Shown: positions 4,940-36,161, counted from the stretch's first letter. The stretch: DNA of 64,000 nt from Promethearchaeota archaeon (GCA_048938855.1 JBHLLT010000005.1:103571-167570), one strand, 5' to 3'. The notes: generated from the letters alone by a model not told the origin. A program made the numbers and translations.

Positions 4940-5671
4940 TTATACCAAATACTTTAACCCTGCTCTCACTTTATAGGTTTTATTAATTCTGTCTAATTCA
5001 ATAAAACGCTTAATTTCTAAATTATTTAAAAAATCTCGCATCTCTACTTTATCTTTTTTTAATTCTTCCGCTAAACCTTCAATATTATTCTCGTAATTTC
5101 GAAGTGTCTGGAGTAAAGATGAATATTCTTCATAAATATGGTTAACTAAGTAAGTGATAGATTCTCTTATATTTAGATTAGTTTCTGTACTTGTTGGAAA
5201 AATTTTACTATCTTCTGGCAAATAATTTTGGGATCGAATTACTTCTGGAGGGCGAGCACTTTTAATATCTTGTTTATTTGCTAAATACACTATAGGAGTA
5301 TTTGGAGGTAATATTTTCCTAATCGAGTTCAGTATCATTATCGCACTATCATCTTTCTCTGGAGCAGCAGCATCGAATAAAAAGATGATTCCATCTGAAC
5401 CACTAGTGCAAATACTTCTCATTACAGAAAATCGCAACAGACCTGGTGTTCCAAATAAAAAGACATCGAATCCATTTAGTTTTACGCTGCCTAAATCCAT
5501 TGCAACTGTGTAAAACTTATCATCCTTACCTTTAGCTTCAACATTCAATGCATTACTGTCTAAAGCTCTTATATAGCTTGACTTTCCCGACTGAAGAGGT
5601 CCTGAAACTAATATTTTTATTTTTTTCACCACACGATTACTAATGCAATTGAAAGTTGATTTTACTTTCAT
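4940..5671 (-). CDS. Small GTPase (MglA/CvnD-like) with C-terminal winged-helix-like extension
   Basis: G1 GPLQSGKS, TVAMDLG, LFGTPG, G4 NKQD; real start may be the GTG near 5632. Confidence 0.85.
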   Translation of the reverse strand: MKVKSTFNCISNRVVKKIKILVSGPLQSGKSSYIRALDSNALNVEAKGKDDKFYTVAMDLGSVKLNGFDVFLFGTPGLLRFSVMRSICTSGSDGIIFLFDAAAPEKDDSAIMILNSIRKILPPNTPIVYLANKQDIKSARPPEVIRSQNYLPEDSKIFPTSTETNLNIRESITYLVNHIYEEYSSLLQTLRNYENNIEGLAEELKKDKVEMRDFLNNLEIKRFIELDRINKTYKVRAGLKYLV

Positions 5672-6186: not shown

Positions 6187-9100
6187 ATGAATAGTAATAT
6201 AATGGTAATTGGAGGCGGAATTTCTGGGATTGAGGCAGCATTGACTTTAGGAGAACAAGGATATAAAGTGATCTTAGTTGAGAAAACTCCCTCTGTTGGA
6301 GGGAGAATGGCACAATTAGATAAAACATTTCCCACTTTAGATTGTAGTATATGTATACTCGCACCTAAGATGGTTGAAGTGTCTAGACACCCTAACGTAG
6401 AGCTACTAGCATACTCTGAAATACAAGAAGTAGATGGTCAAGCAGGAAATTTTAATGTCAAAGTTCTTAAAAAATCGAGATATGTTGATTGGGATGTTTG
6501 TACCGGTTGTGGGCAATGCATGGAGAAATGTCCCATGAAGAAAATACCTTCAGAATTTGAAGAAGGTATGGGTAATCGTACTGCGATCTATATTCCTTTT
6601 CCACAAGCAGTGCCAAGAAAAGCCGTTATTGATGCGAAAAAATGCTTATACCTAACAAAAAACGCCTGTAAACTCTGTGAAAAAGAATGTGAAGCTGGAG
6701 CGATTAATTGGGACATGAAAGATGAAATAGTAGAATATAATGTAGCTTCTATCATATGTGCTACAGGTTACGACCAATTAGATCCAAGTGTTCTTGATCG
6801 ATATCATTATGGGGAATACCCTAATGTGATTACTGCTATGCAATATGAAAGATTATTAAGTGCATCTGGTCCTACTGAAGGAGAGTTATTACGACCCTCT
6901 GATAAAAAACATGCATATAATATTGGCTTTATTAGTTGTGTTGGCTCAAGGAACATGGACCTTTGTTCTTATTGCTCTAAATTCTGTTGTATGTATCAAA
7001 CCAAGGAAGGGGTTGTTACAAGAGAACATTCACCAGATACAAATGTTACCATCTTTTTCAATGATTCTCGAGTCATTGGAAAGAACCAAGAAGAATTCAT
7101 TGAAAGAGCTAAGGATGAGTATAAACTTATATATTATAGAGGAATTCCTGGAGATATTCGTGAAAATCCTGAAAATCATAATCTTTACGTAAAGCATGCT
7201 AATTTAGATACAGGTGAAGTTGAGACCAGTGAATTTGACTTAGTTGTCCTTGCAAATGCAGTTACTCCACGAAAGGATGCTGAAAACTTAGCAAATATAT
7301 TGGGTATTGAACAAAATGAATTAGGTTTCTTTAAAACTAGAAATTCCACAGAAGATCTTCTCTCTTCAAGAGAAGGAATTTATGTGACCGGATCATGCCA
7401 ATCTCCTGATGATATCGCAAATTCAGTCGCAAAAGCAGGGGGCGCCGCTGCTTTAGCAGCTAGTCATGCAGTCCCATTAAGTGGAGAAGAAACTAAAGTA
7501 GAGCTTCCTCCTCTTAAAGCCATAAATCCGAAAGATGAACCTCATATTGGAGTATTCATCTGTCGCTGTGGTATTAATATTGCGGGATATATAGATGTTC
7601 CTTCGTTAGTTGAATATGCAAAAACTCTTCCCAATGTTGTGTATTCCATGGAAAATAAATATAGTTGCTCACAACTAACTCAAGATATTATAAAGGAAAA
7701 AATCGAGGAGTTAAATTTAAATAGGGTTGTAGTTGCAGCATGTACACCAAGGACCCACGAACCCTTGTTTCAAAAGACTATTAGAGAAGCGGGCTTAAAT
7801 GAATATTTATTTAATTTCGTAAGTATAAGAGAGTTAGACTCATGGGTTCACATGAATAATAACCCCAAAGCAACTGATAAAGCTAAAGATCTCATTAGAA
7901 TGGGGGTTGCTCGAGTAGCAGCACAAAAACCAGAATTAAAGATAAAAGGAAAGGTTATTCCTGAAGCAATGGTGGTTGGTGGTGGTATAGCTGGAATGAG
8001 TGCTGCTTTGGAAATTGCTAATAAAGGATTTAAAGTGCATTTAGTCGAGAAAGAGGATAAATTAGGTGGACAATTAAACTCTATTTATAAAATTAACTTT
8101 GATAGGATTGATTCAAAGGAGTTCTTAGATGCTAAATTAAAGGAATTTAATGAACAAAAAAATCTTAACGTATATTTAAACTCAGAAGTCATTGATGTAA
8201 AAGGATCAATCGGAGATTTTAAAGTTAAAATAAGGGAAAATAATGAAGGAAAAGATATTAATCTGAATATTGGTACTATAATTGCTGCAACAGGTGCATA
8301 TGAATATAAACCTAAAGGATGGTATCATTATGGCGAAAATGATAATGTAATGACTCAACTTGAATTATCTGATAGACTCAAGAATAACGATCTTAAGGAT
8401 GGAGAAAGTATTGTTTTTATCCACTGTGTGGGATCTAGACAACCAGAAGGAGGGAATGGAGTTACATATTGCTCATTAATCTGTTGTTCTGAATCAATTC
8501 GACACGCCTTATATGTAAAAGAAACATATCCAAACTCAACTATTTATGTCTTATATAGAGATATCCGAGTGGGTACTGCTGAAGAAGCTTATTATTGGAA
8601 AGCACGTGAAAATGTAAATTATATACGATTTAATGAATATCCTACTGTTGATCCTATTAATGGTAAGTTAAATGTAAATGTTAAAGATATTTTAACTCAA
8701 ACGGACCTTACTATTGAAGCTGACAAAGTGGTTTTATCAACCCCTTTAATACCTCATGATACCCAAAAATTAGGTGAGATGATAAAATGTGCCAGAGATC
8801 AAAATGGTTATTTTCTAGAAGCTCACGTGAAATTAAGACCTGTTGATTTTGCCACTGATGGTATATATTTAGCAGGTACTTGTCATGGTCCTAAAGGTAT
8901 TGCGGATTCAATCTCACAAGCTCGAGGTGCAGCAGCTCACGCTTTAATTCCTCTAATATCTGGAGAAGTGGAGAATGAACCTCTTATTTCAGTAGTAGAT
9001 CCTTCCTTATGTATTGCATGCCAAAAATGTGAAGAGGTTTGTAACTTTGGAGCTATAGGAGTGAATTTTGATAACGACATATTAGTTTCAGAATCTAATC

Positions 9101-9669
9101 CACTTTTATGTAAAGGTTGTGGAGACTGTTCGGCCGCATGTCCTGCAGGAGCGATCACAATGAGTCATTTTGCAGATAATCAAATATATCCAATGATACG
9201 TGAAGCCGTTAGGGGCGAATATAAAGATGAAAGACCTAGAATTGTAGCATTCTTATGTAATTGGTGTAGTTATGCTGGCGCTGATACCTGTGGAGTAAGT
9301 CGTTTCCAGTATCCAACGAATATTCGACCAATAAGAGTTATGTGCACTGGGAGAATACCAAAAAGTTTTATTTTACAAGCATTTCTGGAAGGAGCTGATG
9401 GTGTGCTTGTTGGGGGATGTCATATTGGTGATTGCCACTATTTAGAAGGTAATTATGACATGCAGCAACGTTATAATGAGTTAAAGGACATACTTGAAAG
9501 TGTAGGCATCAATTCTGACAGATATCGCCTTGAATGGGTGAGTGCATCAGAAGGAAAGCGATTTTCTCAAATTGTCACTGAATTTGTTAACCAAATTAAA
9601 GAGTTAGGGCCACTCCCTAAAATGGGTGATAAAGTTGGAAAAAAAGAAAAAGCTAAGGAGGGAGTATAA
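6187..9669 (+). CDS. hdrA: Heterodisulfide reductase subunit A (two HdrA flavin modules) fused to C-terminal MvhD
   Basis: GGGISG and GGGIAG FAD motifs, LDKTFPTLDCSIC, two CVGSR...CC motifs, ferredoxin motifs; C-terminal CNWCSYAGAD/RVMCTGR/GCHIGDCHY is MvhD. Confidence 0.95.
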   Translation: MNSNIMVIGGGISGIEAALTLGEQGYKVILVEKTPSVGGRMAQLDKTFPTLDCSICILAPKMVEVSRHPNVELLAYSEIQEVDGQAGNFNVKVLKKSRYVDWDVCTGCGQCMEKCPMKKIPSEFEEGMGNRTAIYIPFPQAVPRKAVIDAKKCLYLTKNACKLCEKECEAGAINWDMKDEIVEYNVASIICATGYDQLDPSVLDRYHYGEYPNVITAMQYERLLSASGPTEGELLRPSDKKHAYNIGFISCVGSRNMDLCSYCSKFCCMYQTKEGVVTREHSPDTNVTIFFNDSRVIGKNQEEFIERAKDEYKLIYYRGIPGDIRENPENHNLYVKHANLDTGEVETSEFDLVVLANAVTPRKDAENLANILGIEQNELGFFKTRNSTEDLLSSREGIYVTGSCQSPDDIANSVAKAGGAAALAASHAVPLSGEETKVELPPLKAINPKDEPHIGVFICRCGINIAGYIDVPSLVEYAKTLPNVVYSMENKYSCSQLTQDIIKEKIEELNLNRVVVAACTPRTHEPLFQKTIREAGLNEYLFNFVSIRELDSWVHMNNNPKATDKAKDLIRMGVARVAAQKPELKIKGKVIPEAMVVGGGIAGMSAALEIANKGFKVHLVEKEDKLGGQLNSIYKINFDRIDSKEFLDAKLKEFNEQKNLNVYLNSEVIDVKGSIGDFKVKIRENNEGKDINLNIGTIIAATGAYEYKPKGWYHYGENDNVMTQLELSDRLKNNDLKDGESIVFIHCVGSRQPEGGNGVTYCSLICCSESIRHALYVKETYPNSTIYVLYRDIRVGTAEEAYYWKARENVNYIRFNEYPTVDPINGKLNVNVKDILTQTDLTIEADKVVLSTPLIPHDTQKLGEMIKCARDQNGYFLEAHVKLRPVDFATDGIYLAGTCHGPKGIADSISQARGAAAHALIPLISGEVENEPLISVVDPSLCIACQKCEEVCNFGAIGVNFDNDILVSESNPLLCKGCGDCSAACPAGAITMSHFADNQIYPMIREAVRGEYKDERPRIVAFLCNWCSYAGADTCGVSRFQYPTNIRPIRVMCTGRIPKSFILQAFLEGADGVLVGGCHIGDCHYLEGNYDMQQRYNELKDILESVGINSDRYRLEWVSASEGKRFSQIVTEFVNQIKELGPLPKMGDKVGKKEKAKEGV

Positions 9670-9671
9670 AA

Positions 9672-10202
9672 TTGACAGAGATGATTAAGAAAAATTCTAA
9701 AAATTTAGACCATAATTTTCGCTATGAAATTAGTAAAAAAGTTGGCGCAAAATCGCTTCTAAACTGTATTCAATGTGGAGTATGTAGCTCAGGTTGTACT
9801 GTAACTGAATATGTTGATATGCAACCTCATCGAGTTGTTGCATCTTGCCTTTTAGGCTTAAAGGATGATGTTCTTTCGAGTCAAGCAATTTGGACTTGTT
9901 CTTTATGCCATAGATGCACTGAACGATGCCCAAAGAATGTAGACTACTCTTTTATTCTTGCTATTCTTCGAAACATGTGTGTTAAAGAAGGAAAAATACC
10001 CAAAGAATACTCTGGCACTGTTGTCACGATATATGATAATGGATTTGTAGTGCCATATAGTGGTAGCTTAAAAGACAATATAGATAGAAGAAGAAATAGG
10101 ATGGGACTACCTCAACTCACAGCTCCCAATCTAGATGAAATTAGATTTATAATAGAAGAAACGGGATTAGGAGATCTCGCAAAAAAAAAGGAGGATGAGT
10201 AA
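9672..10202 (+). CDS. hdrC: Heterodisulfide reductase subunit C
   Basis: CIQCGVCSSGC and IWTCSLCHRCTERCP 4Fe-4S motifs; lies between hdrA and hdrB. Confidence 0.92.
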   Translation: MTEMIKKNSKNLDHNFRYEISKKVGAKSLLNCIQCGVCSSGCTVTEYVDMQPHRVVASCLLGLKDDVLSSQAIWTCSLCHRCTERCPKNVDYSFILAILRNMCVKEGKIPKEYSGTVVTIYDNGFVVPYSGSLKDNIDRRRNRMGLPQLTAPNLDEIRFIIEETGLGDLAKKKEDE

Positions 10203-11086
10203 TGAAAGAACTCGCATTATATTTAGGATGTACAATACCTTTAAAATTACCTCATTTAGAGAAGGCATTTCGAGATGTCGCAGGTATTTTGAATGTAAAG
10301 TTAAAAGAAATGGAGGGAGTAAGTTGTTGTCCTGAACCAGTATCTCTACAATCATTAAATATCGATACTTGGGTCACTTTAGGAGCAAGAAATTTGGCTA
10401 TTGCTGAAAAAATGGGTTTGGACATACTTACAATATGTTCAGGGTGCTATGAAACATTAAAAACAGTAAGTGTACTCTTAGAAGAAGATAAGGAATATCT
10501 CAAAAAAATTAATGGGATATTAAAAAAGATTAATTATACTTATGCTGGAAAAACCAAAGTGTATCATTTTGTGGAACTCTTTAGTCAACCAGATTGGTTA
10601 GAAAAAATTAAATCTTTAACAATAAAACCACTTGATGATTTGACTCTTGCTGTTCATTATGGCTGTCATCTCATAAGGCCTAGTAAAATTATGCAATTTG
10701 ATCATCCTGAGAAACCTGAAAAAATAGATATAATTCTTCAAACACTGGGGGCAAAAACCATTGAGTTTGCGAGTAAACTAGAATGTTGTGGATATTGTGC
10801 TAGGCTACAAGAAGAAATAGGTGAAAAACTTGTTGAAGATAAGATGACAGAATTATGCGAACTTGAAGAGGAAGTTGATGCGTTAATTGCAGTTTGCCCA
10901 GCCTGTACAACACAATATGATAGAAAAGAAAAAATAATTTCCAGAAGAACAGGAAAGGAGTTAACTATACCTGTTCTCTATTTAGCGGAAATTATGGCAA
11001 TTGCATTAGGAGTTGAACTTCAAGATCTTAGTTTAACAAACAGAAGCGTTAAACCAAATAAATTAATAAATAAATTAACAACCTAA
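10202..11086 (+). CDS. hdrB: Heterodisulfide reductase subunit B
   Basis: Two CCG-type domains (YLGC, SCCP, CSGC, HYGCH, CCG, CPAC); start overlaps hdrC stop. Confidence 0.93.
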   Translation: MKELALYLGCTIPLKLPHLEKAFRDVAGILNVKLKEMEGVSCCPEPVSLQSLNIDTWVTLGARNLAIAEKMGLDILTICSGCYETLKTVSVLLEEDKEYLKKINGILKKINYTYAGKTKVYHFVELFSQPDWLEKIKSLTIKPLDDLTLAVHYGCHLIRPSKIMQFDHPEKPEKIDIILQTLGAKTIEFASKLECCGYCARLQEEIGEKLVEDKMTELCELEEEVDALIAVCPACTTQYDRKEKIISRRTGKELTIPVLYLAEIMAIALGVELQDLSLTNRSVKPNKLINKLTT

Positions 11087-11174
11087 AATGTGTAACTTTT
11101 TTTTAACACTAAGAAAACTAATAAAAATAAAAAGAAATTTTAAAATAAAATGTGAAAAAAAGGAGTAATATAAT

Positions 11175-11870
11175 ATGATAATTACACAACAAAAAGATGT
11201 AAGCGAAATATATGAATTGATAAAACCATACGACAAAATTTTAATTACTGGTTGTGACGGGTGTTGTCAGCCTCCTCGATCTCTCAACGAAGCAAAACTT
11301 TTGGGACAATTATTAGAACTAAAAGCAAGGACTGAAGGTAAAGAATTAAAATGGAAAGCTATTACAGTACTACGACAATGCGATGATAGGATCGTTGCTA
11401 CGACATGTCGTCCTTATGAAGAAGACTTTGATGCTGTTGTTTCTTTAGCGTGTGGACTAGGGGTTGTAATGATGAATAAAGTTCTTCCTAAGATTTTGAC
11501 CTACCCTGCTCAAAATAGTATGTATGGAGGAGCTCAAGACAATAGCCAAAATAACTATATTGAATTATGTGAAACATGTGGGGATTGTATAATCGGTGAA
11601 ACAGGTGGGGTGTGTCCTCGTGCGGGGTGTGCTAAACATCTCAGCAATGGACCCTGTGGAGGGATGGTTGAAGGTATGTGTGAAGTGGGTGGCTACACCA
11701 TTCCCTGTGCGTGGGTACGGATATGGCAAAGATTAAAAGAATTTGATAGGCTTGATCTTTTCAAAAAATACCGAGGACCAAGAGATTATCGGAAGTCCAC
11801 AAGTCCAGGTTATAGCAATATCCATAAAGATTATACTAATATTGAAGAAAAAAAGGAGGCGAATAAGTAA
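11175..11870 (+). CDS. metV: Methylene-THF reductase small Fe-S/Zn subunit MetV
   Basis: GCDGCC, SLACGLG, CETCGDC...TGGVCP...CAKHLSNGPCGG...CEV...CAW; abuts metF. Confidence 0.9.
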   Translation: MIITQQKDVSEIYELIKPYDKILITGCDGCCQPPRSLNEAKLLGQLLELKARTEGKELKWKAITVLRQCDDRIVATTCRPYEEDFDAVVSLACGLGVVMMNKVLPKILTYPAQNSMYGGAQDNSQNNYIELCETCGDCIIGETGGVCPRAGCAKHLSNGPCGGMVEGMCEVGGYTIPCAWVRIWQRLKEFDRLDLFKKYRGPRDYRKSTSPGYSNIHKDYTNIEEKKEANK

Positions 11871-12824
11871 ATGGCAAAAAGACCAGCATATAGTAATTTA
11901 TGTAAAGCAATTGAAGCAGGCCATTTTGTATTTACTGGAGAGCTTGAGCCAAAGAAAATATTGAATCTTGACGAAATTATCCATTCTGCTAAAGAAATGA
12001 AAAAGACTGGTAGAATAGTAGCTGCTAACGTAACAGATGGCCCACAGGGTGATGCATACATGTCTTCAATGGTGCCAAGTTATCTTGTTCAAGAACAAGC
12101 AAATATCGAAGCTGTATGGCAAGTAACTGTAAGAGATAGAAATCGAGTAGCTCTTTTTGGAGACATTCTCTCAGGAGCAGTTCTTGGTTTAAAAAATATT
12201 CTTACTCTTACTGGAGACCATACTGCGTTAGGAGACCATAAAAAAGGACGTCCCGTATACGATATTGACAGCACACAATTTGTAGAAATGCTTTCTATGA
12301 TGATTGATGAGGGTACGGATTATGAAGGAAATGAAATTGAAGGTGGTAAAATTGAGATGAATTTTGGATGTGTTGCGAACCCTAATAGTGATCCACGCGA
12401 ACCTGAAATCTTTAAGGTGGGTAGGAAGGTAGAACAAGGGGTAGATTTTATTCAAACTCAAACAGCATTCGATATTGATCAGGCTAAAGAATTTCTTAAA
12501 GAACTTGAACAATTCAATGTTCCTGTTTTATTGGGGATCTTTCCTCTAAAATCTCATGGGATCGCATGGTACTTCGATAATTTTATTCCAGGTGTCTCAG
12601 TACCAAAGGAACTTCTTAAATCTCTTAAGAAGGCAGAGAAAGATAATAAAAGTAATAAACCTGCGAAGTATGCTGCTATTGATAAAATTAATATCGAATA
12701 TTTCAAACCGTTCATTAATGAAATTAAGAAAACCACTAAAGTTGCTGGAATTCACTGCATGGCTGTTGAATATGAAAGGTTGTTCGCACCCCTTCTTGGA
12801 GATTATCCTGAATACGTAAAATAA
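11871..12824 (+). CDS. metF: Methylenetetrahydrofolate reductase catalytic subunit
   Basis: FVFTGELEP, NVTDGP, VRDRNR, LTGDH, GVDFIQTQ and GIHCMA motifs. Confidence 0.93.
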   Translation: MAKRPAYSNLCKAIEAGHFVFTGELEPKKILNLDEIIHSAKEMKKTGRIVAANVTDGPQGDAYMSSMVPSYLVQEQANIEAVWQVTVRDRNRVALFGDILSGAVLGLKNILTLTGDHTALGDHKKGRPVYDIDSTQFVEMLSMMIDEGTDYEGNEIEGGKIEMNFGCVANPNSDPREPEIFKVGRKVEQGVDFIQTQTAFDIDQAKEFLKELEQFNVPVLLGIFPLKSHGIAWYFDNFIPGVSVPKELLKSLKKAEKDNKSNKPAKYAAIDKINIEYFKPFINEIKKTTKVAGIHCMAVEYERLFAPLLGDYPEYVK

Positions 12825-12885
12825 GTCATATATTTTGATTTTTTTATATTAAATGTTATATTTTTTTGAATTTAAATAAATAAAA

Positions 12886-13365
12886 GTGAGAAGAACCGTG
12901 AAAAATCTAGATGATAAAGATAAAAGAATTCTTGAAATGCTTCTCGAGGATTCTAGAAGACCATATCATGAAATTGCTGCAGATCCACAAGTTCAATTAT
13001 CAGAATCTACGGTTAGGAAAAGAGTTATCAAATTACAAGAGGAAGGAGTAATTGAAAAATTCACTATAAAGATTTGCCGTGAAGATGAAAGATGTATAAT
13101 TGCATTCCTTACATTAATTCCGAAAAGTTTAGCGGAAACAAAAGAATTATTAAGAGAAGCGCAAGTTCTACCTCAATGTGAAGAAGTTTATTTTCTTGCA
13201 GGGGAATGTGGCGTTTTAATAAAAGTAAATGTACCTGAAATTATTGAATTAGATGCACTGATAGAGTCATTTCGTGGTCGTGCTGATGTAAAAAGCGTGG
13301 AGAGAGTTTGCGTTGTCCTTAGGCCTATAAAGACAATTATTGGGTCCCAGGGTCGAGTGCTTTAA
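12886..13365 (+). CDS. Lrp/AsnC family transcriptional regulator
   Basis: LDDKDKRILEMLLEDSRRPY...LSESTVRKRV..L.EEGVIEKFT. Confidence 0.92.
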   Translation: MRRTVKNLDDKDKRILEMLLEDSRRPYHEIAADPQVQLSESTVRKRVIKLQEEGVIEKFTIKICREDERCIIAFLTLIPKSLAETKELLREAQVLPQCEEVYFLAGECGVLIKVNVPEIIELDALIESFRGRADVKSVERVCVVLRPIKTIIGSQGRVL

Positions 13366-14448: not shown

Positions 14449-15051
14449 CTAGTTAAACCAATTAACAGCTGAAACTAACTTGTGCTTATAATATTTCCCT
14501 AAAATTAATCTTAGGATGTCCTCAAAACAATCTAAAACCCCCTCTCCACTAAGCGCAATTGTAAATTTCCACTCTAAAACCCTAAATTTATCATACTTTA
14601 TTTCATCTAAGAAATTTCTTGGATTAAATTTGTCTGGTAAATCTTGTTTGTTAAATGCAAGAATTATTGGTATTTCTTTGAGTGATTCACGGAAATAAGA
14701 GATAAGTTCTTGCCACGATGCTAAATTGCGCTCATATACTTCCTCTTGAGAATCAGCTATAAAAATGATACCATCAACAGCTCTTAGGGTTATTGGTCTG
14801 GTAACAAAATAAAAATCTTGTCCAGTTGTAGTATAGATGTGTAGTTTTAATTTCCATTCCTCATTTTGGAATGTAACAGTACCATAATCAAAAAATAACG
14901 TCCTATTTACTGTAGATTCAATACTTTGGAGTGCTTCTCCCTTTCCAAAGTGGGAAAACAAAGCTTTTATAGTAGTAGTCTTTCCTGATAGTGCTGGACC
15001 AAAATACACAATTTTAATGCTGATTGTCTTATCACAGTGATCAATAATCAT
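14449..15051 (-). CDS. mglA: MglA-like small GTPase
   Basis: KIVYFGPALSGKTT, RTLFFDY, YTTTGQDFY, VDGIIFIADSQ, NKQDLP. Confidence 0.9.
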   Translation of the reverse strand: MIIDHCDKTISIKIVYFGPALSGKTTTIKALFSHFGKGEALQSIESTVNRTLFFDYGTVTFQNEEWKLKLHIYTTTGQDFYFVTRPITLRAVDGIIFIADSQEEVYERNLASWQELISYFRESLKEIPIILAFNKQDLPDKFNPRNFLDEIKYDKFRVLEWKFTIALSGEGVLDCFEDILRLILGKYYKHKLVSAVNWFN

Positions 15052-33264: not shown

Positions 33265-33930
33265 ATGACAATTATTACAACAAAAAAGCCATTTGAAGAA
33301 GTTCTTACTGCTATAAAGAACACCAAAAGAATTGGTATTGTTTCATGTGGTTCTTGTGCTGCTATGTGTCAAACTGGTGGTGAAGAAGGCGCTAAGGAAA
33401 TGGCAGAGAAATTAGAGAAAGAAGGATTCCAAATTAATGTTATAATCGTTCCTGAAGAAGTATGTGATAATCGGGTAATGATGAAAGATTTCAGAAAAAT
33501 TGATAGCGAATTACAAGATATCGATGCTATTTTAACTTTAAGCTGTGGTCTTGGAGTAGCAAGTATAACGAAAGTACTCGAAAGAAAGTATCCTCACATT
33601 CCAGTTTTTATTGGAACAAATACGGAATTCATGGGGATGACAGAAAGGATTGGACGTTTTTATATGAGATGTCGAGGATGCGGTGATTGTTTACTAAATG
33701 AAACTGGAGGGATTTGTCCTATAACAACCTGTGCAAAATCACTTATGAATGGACCATGTGGAGGTATGGTAAGAGGTAAATGTGAGGTCGGTAATTATGA
33801 AAGAGATTGTGGTTGGGTGTTGATTTTCAATAGATTAAAAGAATTGGGAAGATTAGACTTATATTCTAAATTAAGGGATCCTGTAGATTGGAGTGAATCT
33901 GGTCACCAACGAGAAGTAGTATGGAGGTAG
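33265..33930 (+). CDS. metV: MetV paralog 2
   Basis: CGSCAAMCQTGG, SCGLG, CRGCGDC...TGGICP...CAKSLMNGPCGG...CEV...CGW. Confidence 0.9.
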   Translation: MTIITTKKPFEEVLTAIKNTKRIGIVSCGSCAAMCQTGGEEGAKEMAEKLEKEGFQINVIIVPEEVCDNRVMMKDFRKIDSELQDIDAILTLSCGLGVASITKVLERKYPHIPVFIGTNTEFMGMTERIGRFYMRCRGCGDCLLNETGGICPITTCAKSLMNGPCGGMVRGKCEVGNYERDCGWVLIFNRLKELGRLDLYSKLRDPVDWSESGHQREVVWR

Positions 33931-33936
33931 TCTGTA

Positions 33937-34866
33937 ATGGCAGAAAAGAAAATATATTCAAAATTAGGTGAAATGATAGCAAAAGGAGAATTTGTATTAA
34001 CTGGAGAATTAGAACCTGAAAAAACCTGTGACCTTTCCCATACGATTCAAGAAGCCAGAGAAATGGCGCCATACGTCGTTGCTGCGAATGTGACAGATAG
34101 TCCTTTAGCAATTGTTACAATTAATTCCATGGCAGCATCCCATATTATCCAGACAGAGACAGGTCTCGAATGTGTATGGCAATTAACTGTTCGTGATTGC
34201 AATAAAATTGGTCTTGCTGGCCAGATTATGGGCGCTCAAGCATTGGGTTTAAATAATGTTCTCTCTCTTACTGGTGATCATACAGCTTTAGGAGATTGTC
34301 CTGAAACAAAACCTGTATTTGATTTAGATTCGGCTACATTAATTAAGTTAGTACGAGAGATGGTTGATAAAGGATCAATTAATGGTCATGAAATTGAGCA
34401 TCCTCCTAAAATGCATGTCGGTGGAGCAGCTAATCCAAATGCTGATCCTATGGAAGCTGAGATCCTAAAAATTGGCAGAAAAGCGGAAGCAGGTGCAGAA
34501 TTTATTCAAACACAAGTAGTATACGACATTGATATGACTGCAGAGTTTTTAAGGGAAATAAAGAAATATAATGTGCCAGTATTTTTAGGAATATTTCCAA
34601 TGAAGAGCTATGGAATTGCTAAGGGATTTGATATGTTTGTTCCTGGTGTTGATGTCCCAAAAGATATTCTTGAAAGATGGAAACGTGTAAAAACAGACGT
34701 TTCTGACAAGAAAGAGCAAAAACAATTGTATGACCAATTGAATTATGAATTTTTCAAGCCTTTTATCAGTGAACTGAAATCAAAAGGTTTACTCTCTGGC
34801 GTTCATTGTATGGCTGTTCATTATACCAGAATTTTTCCTAAATTAATCGAGGTTATCAAATCATAG
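33937..34866 (+). CDS. metF: MetF paralog 2
   Basis: FVLTGELEP, NVTDSP, TVRDCN, LTGDH, AEFIQTQ, GVHCMA. Confidence 0.93.
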   Translation: MAEKKIYSKLGEMIAKGEFVLTGELEPEKTCDLSHTIQEAREMAPYVVAANVTDSPLAIVTINSMAASHIIQTETGLECVWQLTVRDCNKIGLAGQIMGAQALGLNNVLSLTGDHTALGDCPETKPVFDLDSATLIKLVREMVDKGSINGHEIEHPPKMHVGGAANPNADPMEAEILKIGRKAEAGAEFIQTQVVYDIDMTAEFLREIKKYNVPVFLGIFPMKSYGIAKGFDMFVPGVDVPKDILERWKRVKTDVSDKKEQKQLYDQLNYEFFKPFISELKSKGLLSGVHCMAVHYTRIFPKLIEVIKS

Positions 34867-35003
34867 ATTCTTTAGACGAATCCACTTTATTTTCTATTTT
34901 ACTTTTTCTTTATTTTTTTTAAAAAATAGTATATAAATAAAACTATCTTCAAGTTACTTATCATTTATTAAATGATATTTGAGAAATTCAACGGTAATTA
35001 AAA

Positions 35004-36161
35004 ATGGACATAAATGAAATAAAAATTGGTATCGAGAATACGTATACTTTTCCTTTTGAAAATGGTATTAGGACCACAAAACTATATGAGAAACATGGTT
35101 TTGACTCATTATGGTACACAGATCATATAATGAGTTGGTTCCCTGATGCAATTTGGACACCCGATTTAGTAAATATGTCTACTTTTCTACGAAAACCCCA
35201 TGATTTTTATAATGTTTTTCCTACAATGGCAGTCGCAGCAAATAATACAAAAAAAGTATTTCTAGGAACAATTGTTACAGAAACTTTTCGACATCATCCT
35301 GCTTTACTTGCTCATATGATTATAACTCTAGATCATATCTCAAAAGGGAGGGTAATTCTTGGAATAGGAGCAGGTGAAGGGGAGAATATAATTCCCTATG
35401 GGATAAAATGGGAAAAACCTGTAAGCCGATTAGAAGAGGCAATAAAAATTATCAAATTATTATGGAAAAGGGATAAAAAAGTTCATTTTGATGGTAAATT
35501 TTGGAAACTAAGGGATGCCGTTCTTTCTTTGAAACCTTATAAAGGAACAAGACCACCTCCAATATGGATCGGAGCTTTTGGGCCTAAGATGCTTGAGTTG
35601 ACAGGTAAGTTAGGGGATGGTTGGTTACCATATGCTTTACCTGTGAAAAAATATAATGAGTGTCTTGAAAAAATAAAATTATCAGCTAAAAAGGAGGGAC
35701 GCAAACCTGGTGAAATAACCCCAGGAGTAGGTCTTTGTTTGATAATTGATGAAAAACAAGAAGTATGTGAGAAAATGCTGGAAGCTCCTCTAATAAAAAA
35801 TCAAATGTTGACAGCTCCAGATAGGTATTTTAAAGAGTATGGTCTTTCTCATCCACTAGGTGATGAATTTTATGGTGCTATAGATTATATCCCAACAAGA
35901 TATGACAAAGAGACATTATTGGAAGCATATGAGAAAATTCCCGTCGATATGTGTAAAGATTTTTTCGTATATGGTACGCCTGATAATGTCATTGGAAAAA
36001 TTGAAGAATACATTAAAGTAGGGGCAAGGCATTTAGTAATTTTTAACTATACACCAATGTGTGATATTAATAGAGTAAATAGTTCTTATATATGCATCAA
36101 AAAAGTATTAGATTATTTTAAAGAAGAAAGATCGAAATTAGTTGAAGCAATTCAAGATTAA
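35004..36161 (+). CDS. LLM-class flavin/F420-dependent oxidoreductase
   Basis: GFDSLWYTDH, RHHP, TLDHISKGRVILGIGAGE, PPIWIGAFGPKML, DGWLP. Confidence 0.9.
   Translation: MDINEIKIGIENTYTFPFENGIRTTKLYEKHGFDSLWYTDHIMSWFPDAIWTPDLVNMSTFLRKPHDFYNVFPTMAVAANNTKKVFLGTIVTETFRHHPALLAHMIITLDHISKGRVILGIGAGEGENIIPYGIKWEKPVSRLEEAIKIIKLLWKRDKKVHFDGKFWKLRDAVLSLKPYKGTRPPPIWIGAFGPKMLELTGKLGDGWLPYALPVKKYNECLEKIKLSAKKEGRKPGEITPGVGLCLIIDEKQEVCEKMLEAPLIKNQMLTAPDRYFKEYGLSHPLGDEFYGAIDYIPTRYDKETLLEAYEKIPVDMCKDFFVYGTPDNVIGKIEEYIKVGARHLVIFNYTPMCDINRVNSSYICIKKVLDYFKEERSKLVEAIQD

Follow-up and report, generated by a model that had tools for sequence, protein, structure and literature searches.

A candidate Hdr-linked MetVF complex for the missing Mer step in a Loki-type Asgard archaeon

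The five genes hdrA::mvhD, hdrC, hdrB, metV and metF form a compact operon in the genome of a Loki-type Asgard archaeon (Promethearchaeota), and we see about an even chance that their products act as one soluble complex in the methylene/methyl-H4MPT step, replacing the missing Mer and coupled through Hdr to ferredoxin and a disulfide. Loki-3-type Lokiarchaeia, which abound in marine sediments, were reported to have the H4MPT Wood-Ljungdahl branch but no typical mer (PMC8027215); the operon offers a concrete candidate for this step. It is relevant, too, to whether H4MPT can be a substrate of archaeal MetF and to the wiring of Hdr-type methylene reductases, of which the acetogen complex was never purified whole (PMC9430772). 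The kind of system is already known in archaea (Syntrophoarchaeum) and from Moorella and Sporomusa; the Asgard case adds a variant to it, useful for sharper tests but not a category of its own, and no published description of this case was found in a search that excluded most subscription journals.

Operon structure and conservation

All five ORFs lie on the plus strand of the window (the whole stretch of 64,000 nucleotides that was analysed): hdrA::mvhD (6187..9669; 1160 aa, HdrA with a C-terminal FlpD/MvhD), hdrC (9672..10202; 176 aa, 2x[4Fe-4S], TIGR03290 match below the cut-off), hdrB (10202..11086; 294 aa, two CCG domains, TIGR03288 match below the cut-off), metV (11175..11870; 231 aa, PF12225, a cysteine-rich Fe-S subunit) and metF (11871..12824; 317 aa, PF02219). 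The gaps between them are 2, -1, 88 and 0 bp, and ORF and profile checks agree with a preliminary description of this DNA in gene set, co-orientation and gaps; the archaeal, Asgard host proposed there is likewise borne out. Co-transcription of the genes is very probable. The 88-bp gap before metV is AT-rich. A promoter/terminator scan with bacterial-type models on this archaeal DNA gave chance-level, uninformative counts (33 vs 34.5; 5 vs 3.9). An Lrp/AsnC regulator gene (12886..13365, plus strand) stands directly 3' of metF in 66/71 loci and probably belongs to the metVF-hdr unit. The same window holds a second metV-metF pair (33265..34866, plus strand) with no Hdr linkage, 39% (MetV) and 48% (MetF) identical to the operon copies and a candidate for a folate/anabolic role. 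Neither of these features was noted in the preliminary description, nor was the tandem two-flavin HdrA fusion.

Of the 71 loci fetched by MetF similarity, 58, nearly all from Promethearchaeota, share the order mvhD-hdrC-hdrB-metV-metF, so that the adjacency is not due to chance, and the conservation for which a synteny survey had been suggested is indeed present. Among the other 13, seven have this order truncated at the end of a contig and three begin at or inside metF; two of the 71 have mvhD immediately 5' of metV, and one, labelled Bathyarchaeia, has hdrA 3' of metF. Tandem hdrA::mvhD-hdrCB adjoins metV(F) in two further Asgard families (L159, L160), metVF stands beside hdrA/mvhD in Bathyarchaeia and Syntrophoarchaeum as well, and some genomes of the host's family show unlinked metVF only (e.g., G058, G069, G176).

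It is quite improbable that the genes are merely co-regulated, or that Hdr is a non-bifurcating wire; in that case MetVF would draw on free ferredoxin, like the enzyme of Clostridium ljungdahlii, and Hdr would have another job. The AT-rich gap could hold a promoter, the genome has many Hdr paralogues and the complex of S. ovata holds together loosely and could not be purified intact (PMC9430772), but every locus has a short gap before metV (about 35-126 bp), shorter still where metV follows mvhD (26-40 bp), the link recurs in differing gene orders across lineages, and the predicted interface and the chimeric operons presented below point to physical coupling.

The fused HdrA::MvhD and its link to MetV

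HdrA::MvhD scored 1190 bits against NF040770 (HdrA2; cut-off 1100) and comprises two fused thioredoxin-reductase-like flavin domains followed by a C-terminal MvhD (PF02662, residues 1019-1141); HdrA and MvhD domains account for all 1160 residues, and a GltD/NAD(P)H module is absent. The first flavin half (6187..7476, plus strand; residues 1-430) has an FAD motif, Cys53/Cys56 (Cys194/Cys197 of 5ODC), Glu221 and Lys273 (the Glu356/Lys409 bifurcation signature) and the HA4 ligands C251/C263/C267/C268; C56, E221, K273 and the HA4 ligands are invariant across 18 tandem HdrA proteins. This half alone contains an inserted 2x[4Fe-4S] ferredoxin domain (6481..6702, plus strand), the putative low-potential exit. 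An HdrA N-terminal-type domain (7531..7956, plus strand) provides the shuttle-cluster ligands C459/C461/C494/C519 and H524. The second flavin half (7957..8976, plus strand) retains the FAD motif and HA4 ligands, lacks the inserted ferredoxin and the Cys197 equivalent, and has Ser/Arg at the Glu356/Lys409 positions. The C-terminal 2x[4Fe-4S] and MvhD [2Fe-2S] domain (8977..9624, plus strand) is the presumed electron-input arm and the predicted docking surface for MetV; the residues implicated in arm-to-FAD transfer, an MvhD His/Asp and an HdrA Cys pair, are conserved.

Published Hdr structures show that it is the opposite protomer whose FAD is reduced by the arm and whose inserted ferredoxin receives electrons from the shuttle cluster (PMC12350162, PMC13580544); the fused HdrA retains exactly one such set of arm, FAD, shuttle and ferredoxin. 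Judged from its sequence, HdrA joins two unequal halves of a pseudo-dimer in one chain and has a single complete bifurcation path, and the cofactor and ligand signature of the bifurcation suggested in the preliminary description is intact; true flavin-based bifurcation by the complex is likely. In HdrB both non-cubane clusters have their full set of ligands (C10, C42, C43, C79, C82; C155, H156, C195, C196, C232, C235), with the His that follows the last Cys of methanogen HdrB replaced by Thr.

For MetV, neither a PDB relative in sequence nor a close match in fold was found. Its predicted complex with the C-terminal ferredoxin::MvhD, folded without the HdrA N-terminal domain that normally packs on the arm and with HdrC and HdrB not among the partners, scored 0.73 against 0.00 for the best control; the runs agreed on 100% of contacts, the partner pLDDT was at least 85, and in calibration the docking mark was reached by 58/80 solved pairs and 2/110 mismatched pairs. 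The prediction would be a mimic if the N-terminal domain of MetV were homologous to that of HdrA or to MvhG; no homology to either was detected with the shallow profiles at hand. MetV thus probably docks on the ferredoxin/MvhD arm of HdrA, and the physical link between MetV and HdrA/MvhD that had been anticipated finds a predicted counterpart.

Chimeric operons bear on the same contact. In eight genomes (five of the genus, three of the family) metVF stands at the end of a paralogous Hdr operon, with hdrB upstream in 6/8, accompanied by hdrC wherever the region extends far enough. The HdrA body in these eight is closer to another paralogue (53-75% vs 40-60% identity), whereas the arm is closer to that of the present operon (63-68% vs 34-54%). 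AU tests rejected the alternatives (p = 0.0011 and 0.0006), the arm being tested as C-terminal ferredoxin and MvhD together, a region picked after the identity switch had been seen; with MvhD alone, the paralogue grouping was not rejected (p = 0.058). It is thus the C-terminal ferredoxin and MvhD arm, as far as sequence comparison goes, that stays with metVF, although the eight chimeras may stem from a single event and linkage alone may explain part of the pattern. A simple loss of hdrCB in nine genus relatives was considered and rejected, as metVF ends a paralogous Hdr operon in the five of them examined with longer flanks; L054 is the sole clear loss of hdrCB from the orthologous operon. Two lines, the predicted complex and the chimeric relatives, suggest that MetV sits on the electron-input arm.

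Pterin substrate and direction of coupling

The genome has Fwd (FwdA-like), Ftr, Mch, Mtd, MptG and CdhC/D/E, with Mch in 25/25 genus genomes and MptG in 41/41 family genomes, whereas Mer above the cut-off was found in 0/61 family genomes: the Mer model TIGR03555 (cut-off 349 bits) gave at most 171 bits in 41 relatives and 355-500 bits on the true Mer of other Asgard archaea, which served as positive control. By gene content, the H4MPT branch of the host is complete but for Mer. A luciferase-like gene 3' of the second metVF (35004-36161) scored 160 bits, and several relatives have nothing above about 100 bits with the Mer model, so that this gene was not accepted as Mer. A divergent Mer may nevertheless be among the distant luciferase-like paralogues, which reach about 170 bits (PMC8027215). 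Fhs was likewise found in 0/61 family genomes, so that a folate Wood-Ljungdahl branch from CO2 or formate is absent, and the folate-based methyl branch claimed in the preliminary description finds no support; the H4MPT enzymes are present.

The host probably uses folate too, given FolD in the genome, FolP in relatives (above the cut-off in 37/41 family genomes, but not in this one) and two metVF pairs; the paucity of other folate enzymes expected of hosts in which MetFV is proposed to replace Mer is, on the same grounds, not found here. Which metVF copy serves which pterin can only be inferred. The operon MetF has the catalytic-type residues Glu24, Asp116 and Gln198, and its active-site residues gave no readout of pterin preference. 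In the MetF tree it groups with ANME-1, Syntrophoarchaeum and Bathyarchaeia on a branch (100/98 support) apart from the sampled bacterial MetF, which included no Moorella or Sporomusa sequence and a Calderihabitans stand-in that is not Hdr-linked; it is 43% identical to an ANME-1 MetF. This grouping, with the lack of Moorella's NAD(P)H module in HdrA, speaks against the label "acetogen-type". Four other Asgard families have archaeal-type metVF within 0.2-4 kb of a true mer, and in a fifth (L160) mer comes after the hdr-metVF operon; Fhs is absent from all of these, and the five Fhs-positive genomes of family f9 have MetF of the bacterial group. Membership of the archaeal clade does not fix the substrate, because Fhs-positive, Mch-negative genomes (G025, G032) contribute copies to it as well, and action of ANME-1 MetF on H4MPT-bound C1 is itself a proposal (Chadwick et al., 10.1101/2021.09.25.461819).

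We consider H4MPT the rather probable substrate of the operon MetF. That the complex instead reduces methylene-tetrahydrofolate, drawn from a folate C1 pool (serine/glycine and FolD) and coupled to Hdr, is unlikely: MetF is a folate enzyme in the characterised cases (PMC9430772), FolD and the relatives' FolP are at hand, and related Asgard archaea with Fhs carry archaeal-clade MetF (PMC12222021), but Fhs is lacking while the H4MPT branch wants only Mer, the second metVF is available for folate, the Hdr-linked type occurs only in Fhs-negative genomes of the order sample (few independent lineages), and H4F at the MvhD port would permit only ferredoxin-consuming methyl synthesis.

With H4MPT as substrate, HdrA::MvhD-HdrC-HdrB-MetV-MetF would form one soluble complex in which MetF turns over the pterin and MetV sits on the arm, where hydrogenase, formate dehydrogenase or Elp docks in methanogens. 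The arm would feed the sole competent FAD, in the first half of HdrA, from which one electron pair would reach a disulfide by way of HdrC/HdrB and the second would travel via shuttle cluster and inserted ferredoxin domain to ferredoxin. The net reaction would be 2 methyl-H4MPT + Fd(ox) + R-S-S-R <=> 2 methylene-H4MPT + Fd(red) + 2 R-SH, a bifurcation in methyl oxidation and a confurcation in methyl synthesis. With potentials that are partly assumed (methylene-H4MPT, -320 mV; disulfide case, -280 mV), it is near equilibrium with H4MPT, and methyl oxidation with H4F costs +37 to +73 kJ. Methylene reduction would use up reduced ferredoxin, opposite to the Moorella proposal; the coupling of methylene reduction to ferredoxin reduction, which the preliminary description proposed to assay, probably has the wrong sign if MetV is on the MvhD arm.

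The two wirings predict opposite ferredoxin coupling. In the Moorella/Sporomusa type, which we hold to be improbable here, MvhAG from elsewhere would sit on MvhD and MetVF would take high-potential electrons via HdrC/HdrB while ferredoxin is reduced. This was proposed for S. ovata (PMC9430772) and would suit hdrCB directly 5' of metV in most loci, an MvhA/VhuA-type hydrogenase in the genome, the energetics (-2 to -34 kJ, on the same partly assumed potentials), and the missing Mcr, without which CoM-S-S-CoB is not an obvious HdrB substrate. HdrB, however, keeps all its non-cubane cluster ligands, MetV is predicted on the arm, the arm and not hdrCB stays with metVF in the chimeras and L054, Syntrophoarchaeum clusters lack hdrBC, and S. 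ovata MetV pulled down HdrA, not HdrB (PMC9430772).

Comparison with known systems

Taken as a whole, the preliminary description is supported for the Asgard host, the adjacency, the bifurcation signature and the predicted link, and not supported for the folate branch, the acetogen type and, probably, the sign of coupling. The Hdr-type (type IV) MTHFR of Moorella thermoacetica, HdrCBA-MvhD-MetVF (Mock et al. 2014, as cited in PMC9430772), and that of Sporomusa ovata (Kremp et al. 2022, PMC9430772) share with the Asgard operon the same six components in one cluster and a tandem two-flavin HdrA, in S. ovata also with the Glu/Lys signature in one flavin domain only. Unlike both, the Asgard operon fuses MvhD to HdrA and has the order A::D-C-B-V-F. 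Its HdrA is without the GltD/NAD(P)H module of Moorella, as is that of S. ovata, whose HdrA in turn lacks the methanogen-type inserted ferredoxin kept in the Asgard first half. The Asgard host, moreover, is without Fhs and has an H4MPT branch, and its MetF groups with archaeal enzymes, apart from the bacterial ones sampled.

Clusters of metFV-hdrA-mvhD in Ca. Syntrophoarchaeum are already in print (Chadwick et al., 10.1101/2021.09.25.461819 / PMC9012536), with MetF electrons proposed to enter HdrA bifurcation/confurcation (PMC9012536). ANME-1 and Syntrophoarchaeum share the MetF clade and a host with the H4MPT branch but no Mer. The Asgard operon differs from Syntrophoarchaeum in including HdrC/HdrB and in joining HdrA, its partner half and MvhD in one polypeptide, and its host differs from both in lacking Mcr/Acr. 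With five genes and a single chain for the HdrA dimer and MvhD, this compact form lends itself well to heterologous expression and cryo-EM.

The methanogen HdrABC-MvhD takes interchangeable donors, MvhAG, FdhAB and ElpAB (5ODC, 7BKB, 8RVU; PMC12350162, PMC13580544, PMC13518236). The Asgard form shares with it the full set of ligands and signature residues for one bifurcation path but is a one-sided fused pseudo-dimer whose operon has no mvhAG, fdh or elp, with MetVF as the proposed donor module. The methanogen acceptor, CoM-S-S-CoB, is made by Mcr, whereas McrA was not found in the Asgard genome (97% complete). We tentatively suggest, at less than even odds, that MetVF joins the modules that plug into the Hdr input arm, and that in Loki-type Asgard archaea it makes the methylene/methyl-H4MPT step a reversible flavin-based bifurcation with ferredoxin and a disulfide other than that of CoM/CoB; if so, the missing-Mer gap would be filled, an H4MPT-specific MetF would be at hand, and the wiring proposed for Moorella would be reversed.

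Operon structure, host and conservation

ORF calling bore out the five co-oriented reading frames listed in the preliminary description (hdrA::mvhD, hdrC, hdrB, metV and metF, with gaps of 2, -1, 88 and 0 bp), which together with a following lrp gene occupy 6187-13365 of the window on the + strand. Family scans identified HdrA with a C-terminal MvhD domain, HdrC, HdrB, MetV (PF12225) and MetF (PF02219). Thermosome, Lrp and small-GTPase genes are present on the contig, and the named relatives are nearly all Promethearchaeota, including Loki_b31 and AMARA_5S; from these relatives and the gene content we infer a Loki-3-like host. Two small Ras/Arf-like GTPase genes lie on the - strand on either side of the operon region (window 4940-5671 and 14449-15051), the upstream one being kept beside hdrA in most relatives.

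Conservation was surveyed in 71 loci retrieved by MetF similarity. The order mvhD(fused)-hdrC-hdrB-metV-metF was found in 58 of them and was interrupted by a contig edge in another seven; metV immediately follows mvhD in two, three start at or within metF, and one, labelled Bathyarchaeia, has hdrA downstream of metF. An Lrp gene is located 3' of metF in 66 of the 71 loci. In two other Asgard families (loci L159 and L160), metV or metV-metF stands upstream of a tandem hdrA::mvhD-hdrC-hdrB; in Bathyarchaeia, a ferredoxin::MvhD-metV-metF unit is grouped with ftr and metFV; and in Ca. Syntrophoarchaeum, several hdrA and mvhD genes, but no hdrBC, come after metV-metF (a metFV-hdrA-mvhD cluster already in print; 10.1101/2021.09.25.461819). 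Because these arrangements differ, the link between metVF and hdr/mvhD recurs in varied gene orders, and the adjacency for which a synteny survey had been proposed is conserved. Three genomes from a single genus within the family (G058, G069 and G176; L199-L201) show only unlinked metVF, with a wider metV-metF gap.

The HdrA arm and its predicted contact with MetV

HdrA is a fusion of two HdrA flavin halves. The first contains the Cys pair equivalent to Cys194/Cys197 of methanogen HdrA, the inserted ferredoxin domain, the HA4 ligands and Glu221/Lys273, which correspond to Glu356/Lys409, a marker of bifurcating flavins (PMC9430772). The second carries a shuttle-cluster domain at its N-terminal side, a C-terminal ferredoxin domain and MvhD, but neither the ferredoxin insert nor an equivalent of Cys197, and its residues at the Glu356/Lys409 sites are Ser/Arg. 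In cryo-EM structures, a mobile arm of one protomer (HdrA N- and C-terminal domains with MvhD) reduces the FAD held by its counterpart, and the low-potential electron passes from the shuttle cluster to the inserted ferredoxin of the protomer that holds this FAD (PMC12350162, PMC13580544). Judged by its residues, the fused chain retains exactly one such arm-FAD-shuttle-ferredoxin path. HdrA::MvhD has no Moorella-type GltD/NAD(P)H module, HdrB retains every non-cubane cluster ligand, and McrA was not found in the host genome (3.95 Mb, 97% complete, 7% contaminated).

The whole genome encodes at least a dozen HdrA-like ORFs but no more than about five HdrB genes that stand alone, a surplus resembling that described for ANME-1, and several of its HdrA genes come in two parts, with the break after the Cys194/197 region. 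Elsewhere, an hdrCBA-mvhD cluster that includes hydrogenase-like genes (G000:C24:10075-19894) has as neighbours apparent DsrE/F/H and TusA sulfur-carrier genes (N-termini, by eye), which offers a lead for the HdrB disulfide.

A MetV-Hdr/MvhD link, for which structure prediction had been suggested as a check, was predicted between MetV and the C-terminal ferredoxin::MvhD segment with a score of 0.73 (best control 0.00), in a model built without the HdrA N-terminal domain and with this segment as the only Hdr partner. Its contacts were 100% shared by three runs, with partner pLDDT of at least 85; in calibration, 58 of 80 solved pairs but just 2 of 110 mismatched ones attained the docking mark. 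As MetV has neither a PDB relative by sequence nor a close fold, recall of a similar complex is unlikely. On the ferredoxin domain the predicted interface takes in both cluster loops, and on MvhD two helices, at about residues 940-990 and 1058-1110 of HdrA::MvhD; we equate one of the helices with the VhuD helix that reportedly binds the Vhu and Fdh modules (PMC13518236).

Independently of this prediction, the same segment is set apart by chimeric relatives. Another large Hdr operon of the host lies on the contig that holds the window (L038; G000:C79:26332-40216); it reads hdrC-hdrB-frhB-like-split hdrA-long mvhD-tandem hdrA-mvhD, followed by an Flx/Asr-like NAD(P)H module and a further frhB-like gene. 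The equivalent, paralogous operon of eight relatives ends in metVF, the place taken in the host by the Flx/Asr-like module. The HdrA body of these eight chimeras is 53-75% identical to the paralogue versus 40-60% to the focal gene, whereas their C-terminal ferredoxin and MvhD are 63-68% identical to the focal gene versus 34-54% to the paralogue, a conflict upheld by separate trees (AU p = 0.0011 and 0.0006). Since the chimera arm switches to the focal type, the segment predicted to bind MetV is the one that stays with metVF. The chimeras may derive from a single recombination event, and linkage could contribute to the retention of the arm with metVF.

Probable pterin and the absence of canonical Mer

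The genome carries Mch, Mtd, Ftr, MptG and CdhC/D/E, as well as an FwdA-like gene (280 bits, under the cut-off) with probable fwdD/fwdB neighbours downstream; searches of it detected no Fhs and no Mer over the cut-off. Across the family, Fhs and Mer over the cut-off were each found in 0 of 61 genomes and MptG in 41 of 41. TIGR03555 gave 355-500 bits on true Asgard Mer and at most 171 bits on 41 relatives, so the absence of Mer is not a failure of the model, and it agrees with the report of Loki-3 without a typical mer (PMC8027215). The folate-based Wood-Ljungdahl methyl branch of the preliminary description is thus not upheld, and H4MPT is probably the pterin of the Hdr-linked MetVF, although FolD is present, FolP occurs in 37 of 41 family genomes (not in the host), and a second metVF pair (window 33265-34866) complicates assignment of a pterin to the focal copy. 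This second metV-metF is followed by an F420-type luciferase-like oxidoreductase (window 33265-36161 in all; 160 bits to Mer, cut-off 349).

The focal MetF groups with enzymes of ANME-1, Syntrophoarchaeum, Bathyarchaeia and Hadarchaeales, and a 100/98 branch divides this group from the bacterial MetF in the tree (a set without Moorella and Sporomusa); the focal protein is 43% identical to an ANME-1 MetF and 34% to that of Calderihabitans. The five Fhs-positive genomes of family f9 have MetF of the bacterial group; against H4MPT, the archaeal clade also takes in copies from Fhs-positive genomes without Mch. Four other Asgard families have archaeal-type metVF at a distance of 0.2-4 kb from a true mer, and a fifth family (L160) has mer downstream of the hdr-metVF operon; no Fhs was found in the genomes of these five families. 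At these loci (L147, L149-L151, L154-L156, L160 and L166), MetVF and Mer coexist as parallel routes.

Outside the window, the acetyl-CoA synthase gene cdhC (L217, G000:C49:457497-458963, - strand) is interrupted by a 30-nt hairpin insert that is in frame, contains a TAG stop and has bulge-helix-bulge geometry; its excision restores the codon of relatives. An insert occurs at the same site in G016 (L235; perfect 4-bp central helix) and at a nearby site in G004 (L244), G018:C4 cdhC has an internal TAG, and 27 of 30 loci lack the insert, a candidate tRNA-type intron in an mRNA.

Energetics, wiring and known systems

If MetVF occupies the mid-potential port, the net reaction would be 2 methyl-pterin + Fd(ox) + disulfide <=> 2 methylene-pterin + Fd(red) + 2 thiol. 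Taking -320 mV for the methylene/methyl-H4MPT couple, -450 to -500 mV for ferredoxin and -140 mV for the disulfide, we calculated -10 to 0 kJ, hence a reversible reaction; with H4F at -200 mV (PMC9430772), methyl oxidation would cost +37 to +46 kJ, and a disulfide at -280 mV would push both cases towards methyl synthesis. Methylene reduction would use up reduced ferredoxin in either case, a coupling opposite in sign to the Moorella proposal and, if MetVF sits at this port, to the assay suggested earlier (methylene reduction with ferredoxin reduction). Wiring in which H2 enters via MvhAG and MetVF docks on HdrBC is energetically feasible (-2 to -34 kJ), and an MvhA-type hydrogenase is encoded in the genome, which makes this wiring a possible, though less probable, alternative to MetVF on the arm.

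No report of an hdrA::mvhD-hdrC-hdrB-metV-metF operon in Asgard archaea was found in the literature searched, which was short on subscription papers. It has the same set of components as the Hdr-type MTHFR found in Moorella and Sporomusa, and for Syntrophoarchaeum/ANME-1 an archaeal metFV-hdrA-mvhD cluster has been published together with a Mer-replacement proposal (10.1101/2021.09.25.461819). The operon is real and conserved, and is a variant of these already known Hdr-metVF systems: it would work like those of Moorella/Sporomusa and Syntrophoarchaeum/ANME-1, but falls outside the acetogen enzymes because the folate branch that defines them was not found in its host.
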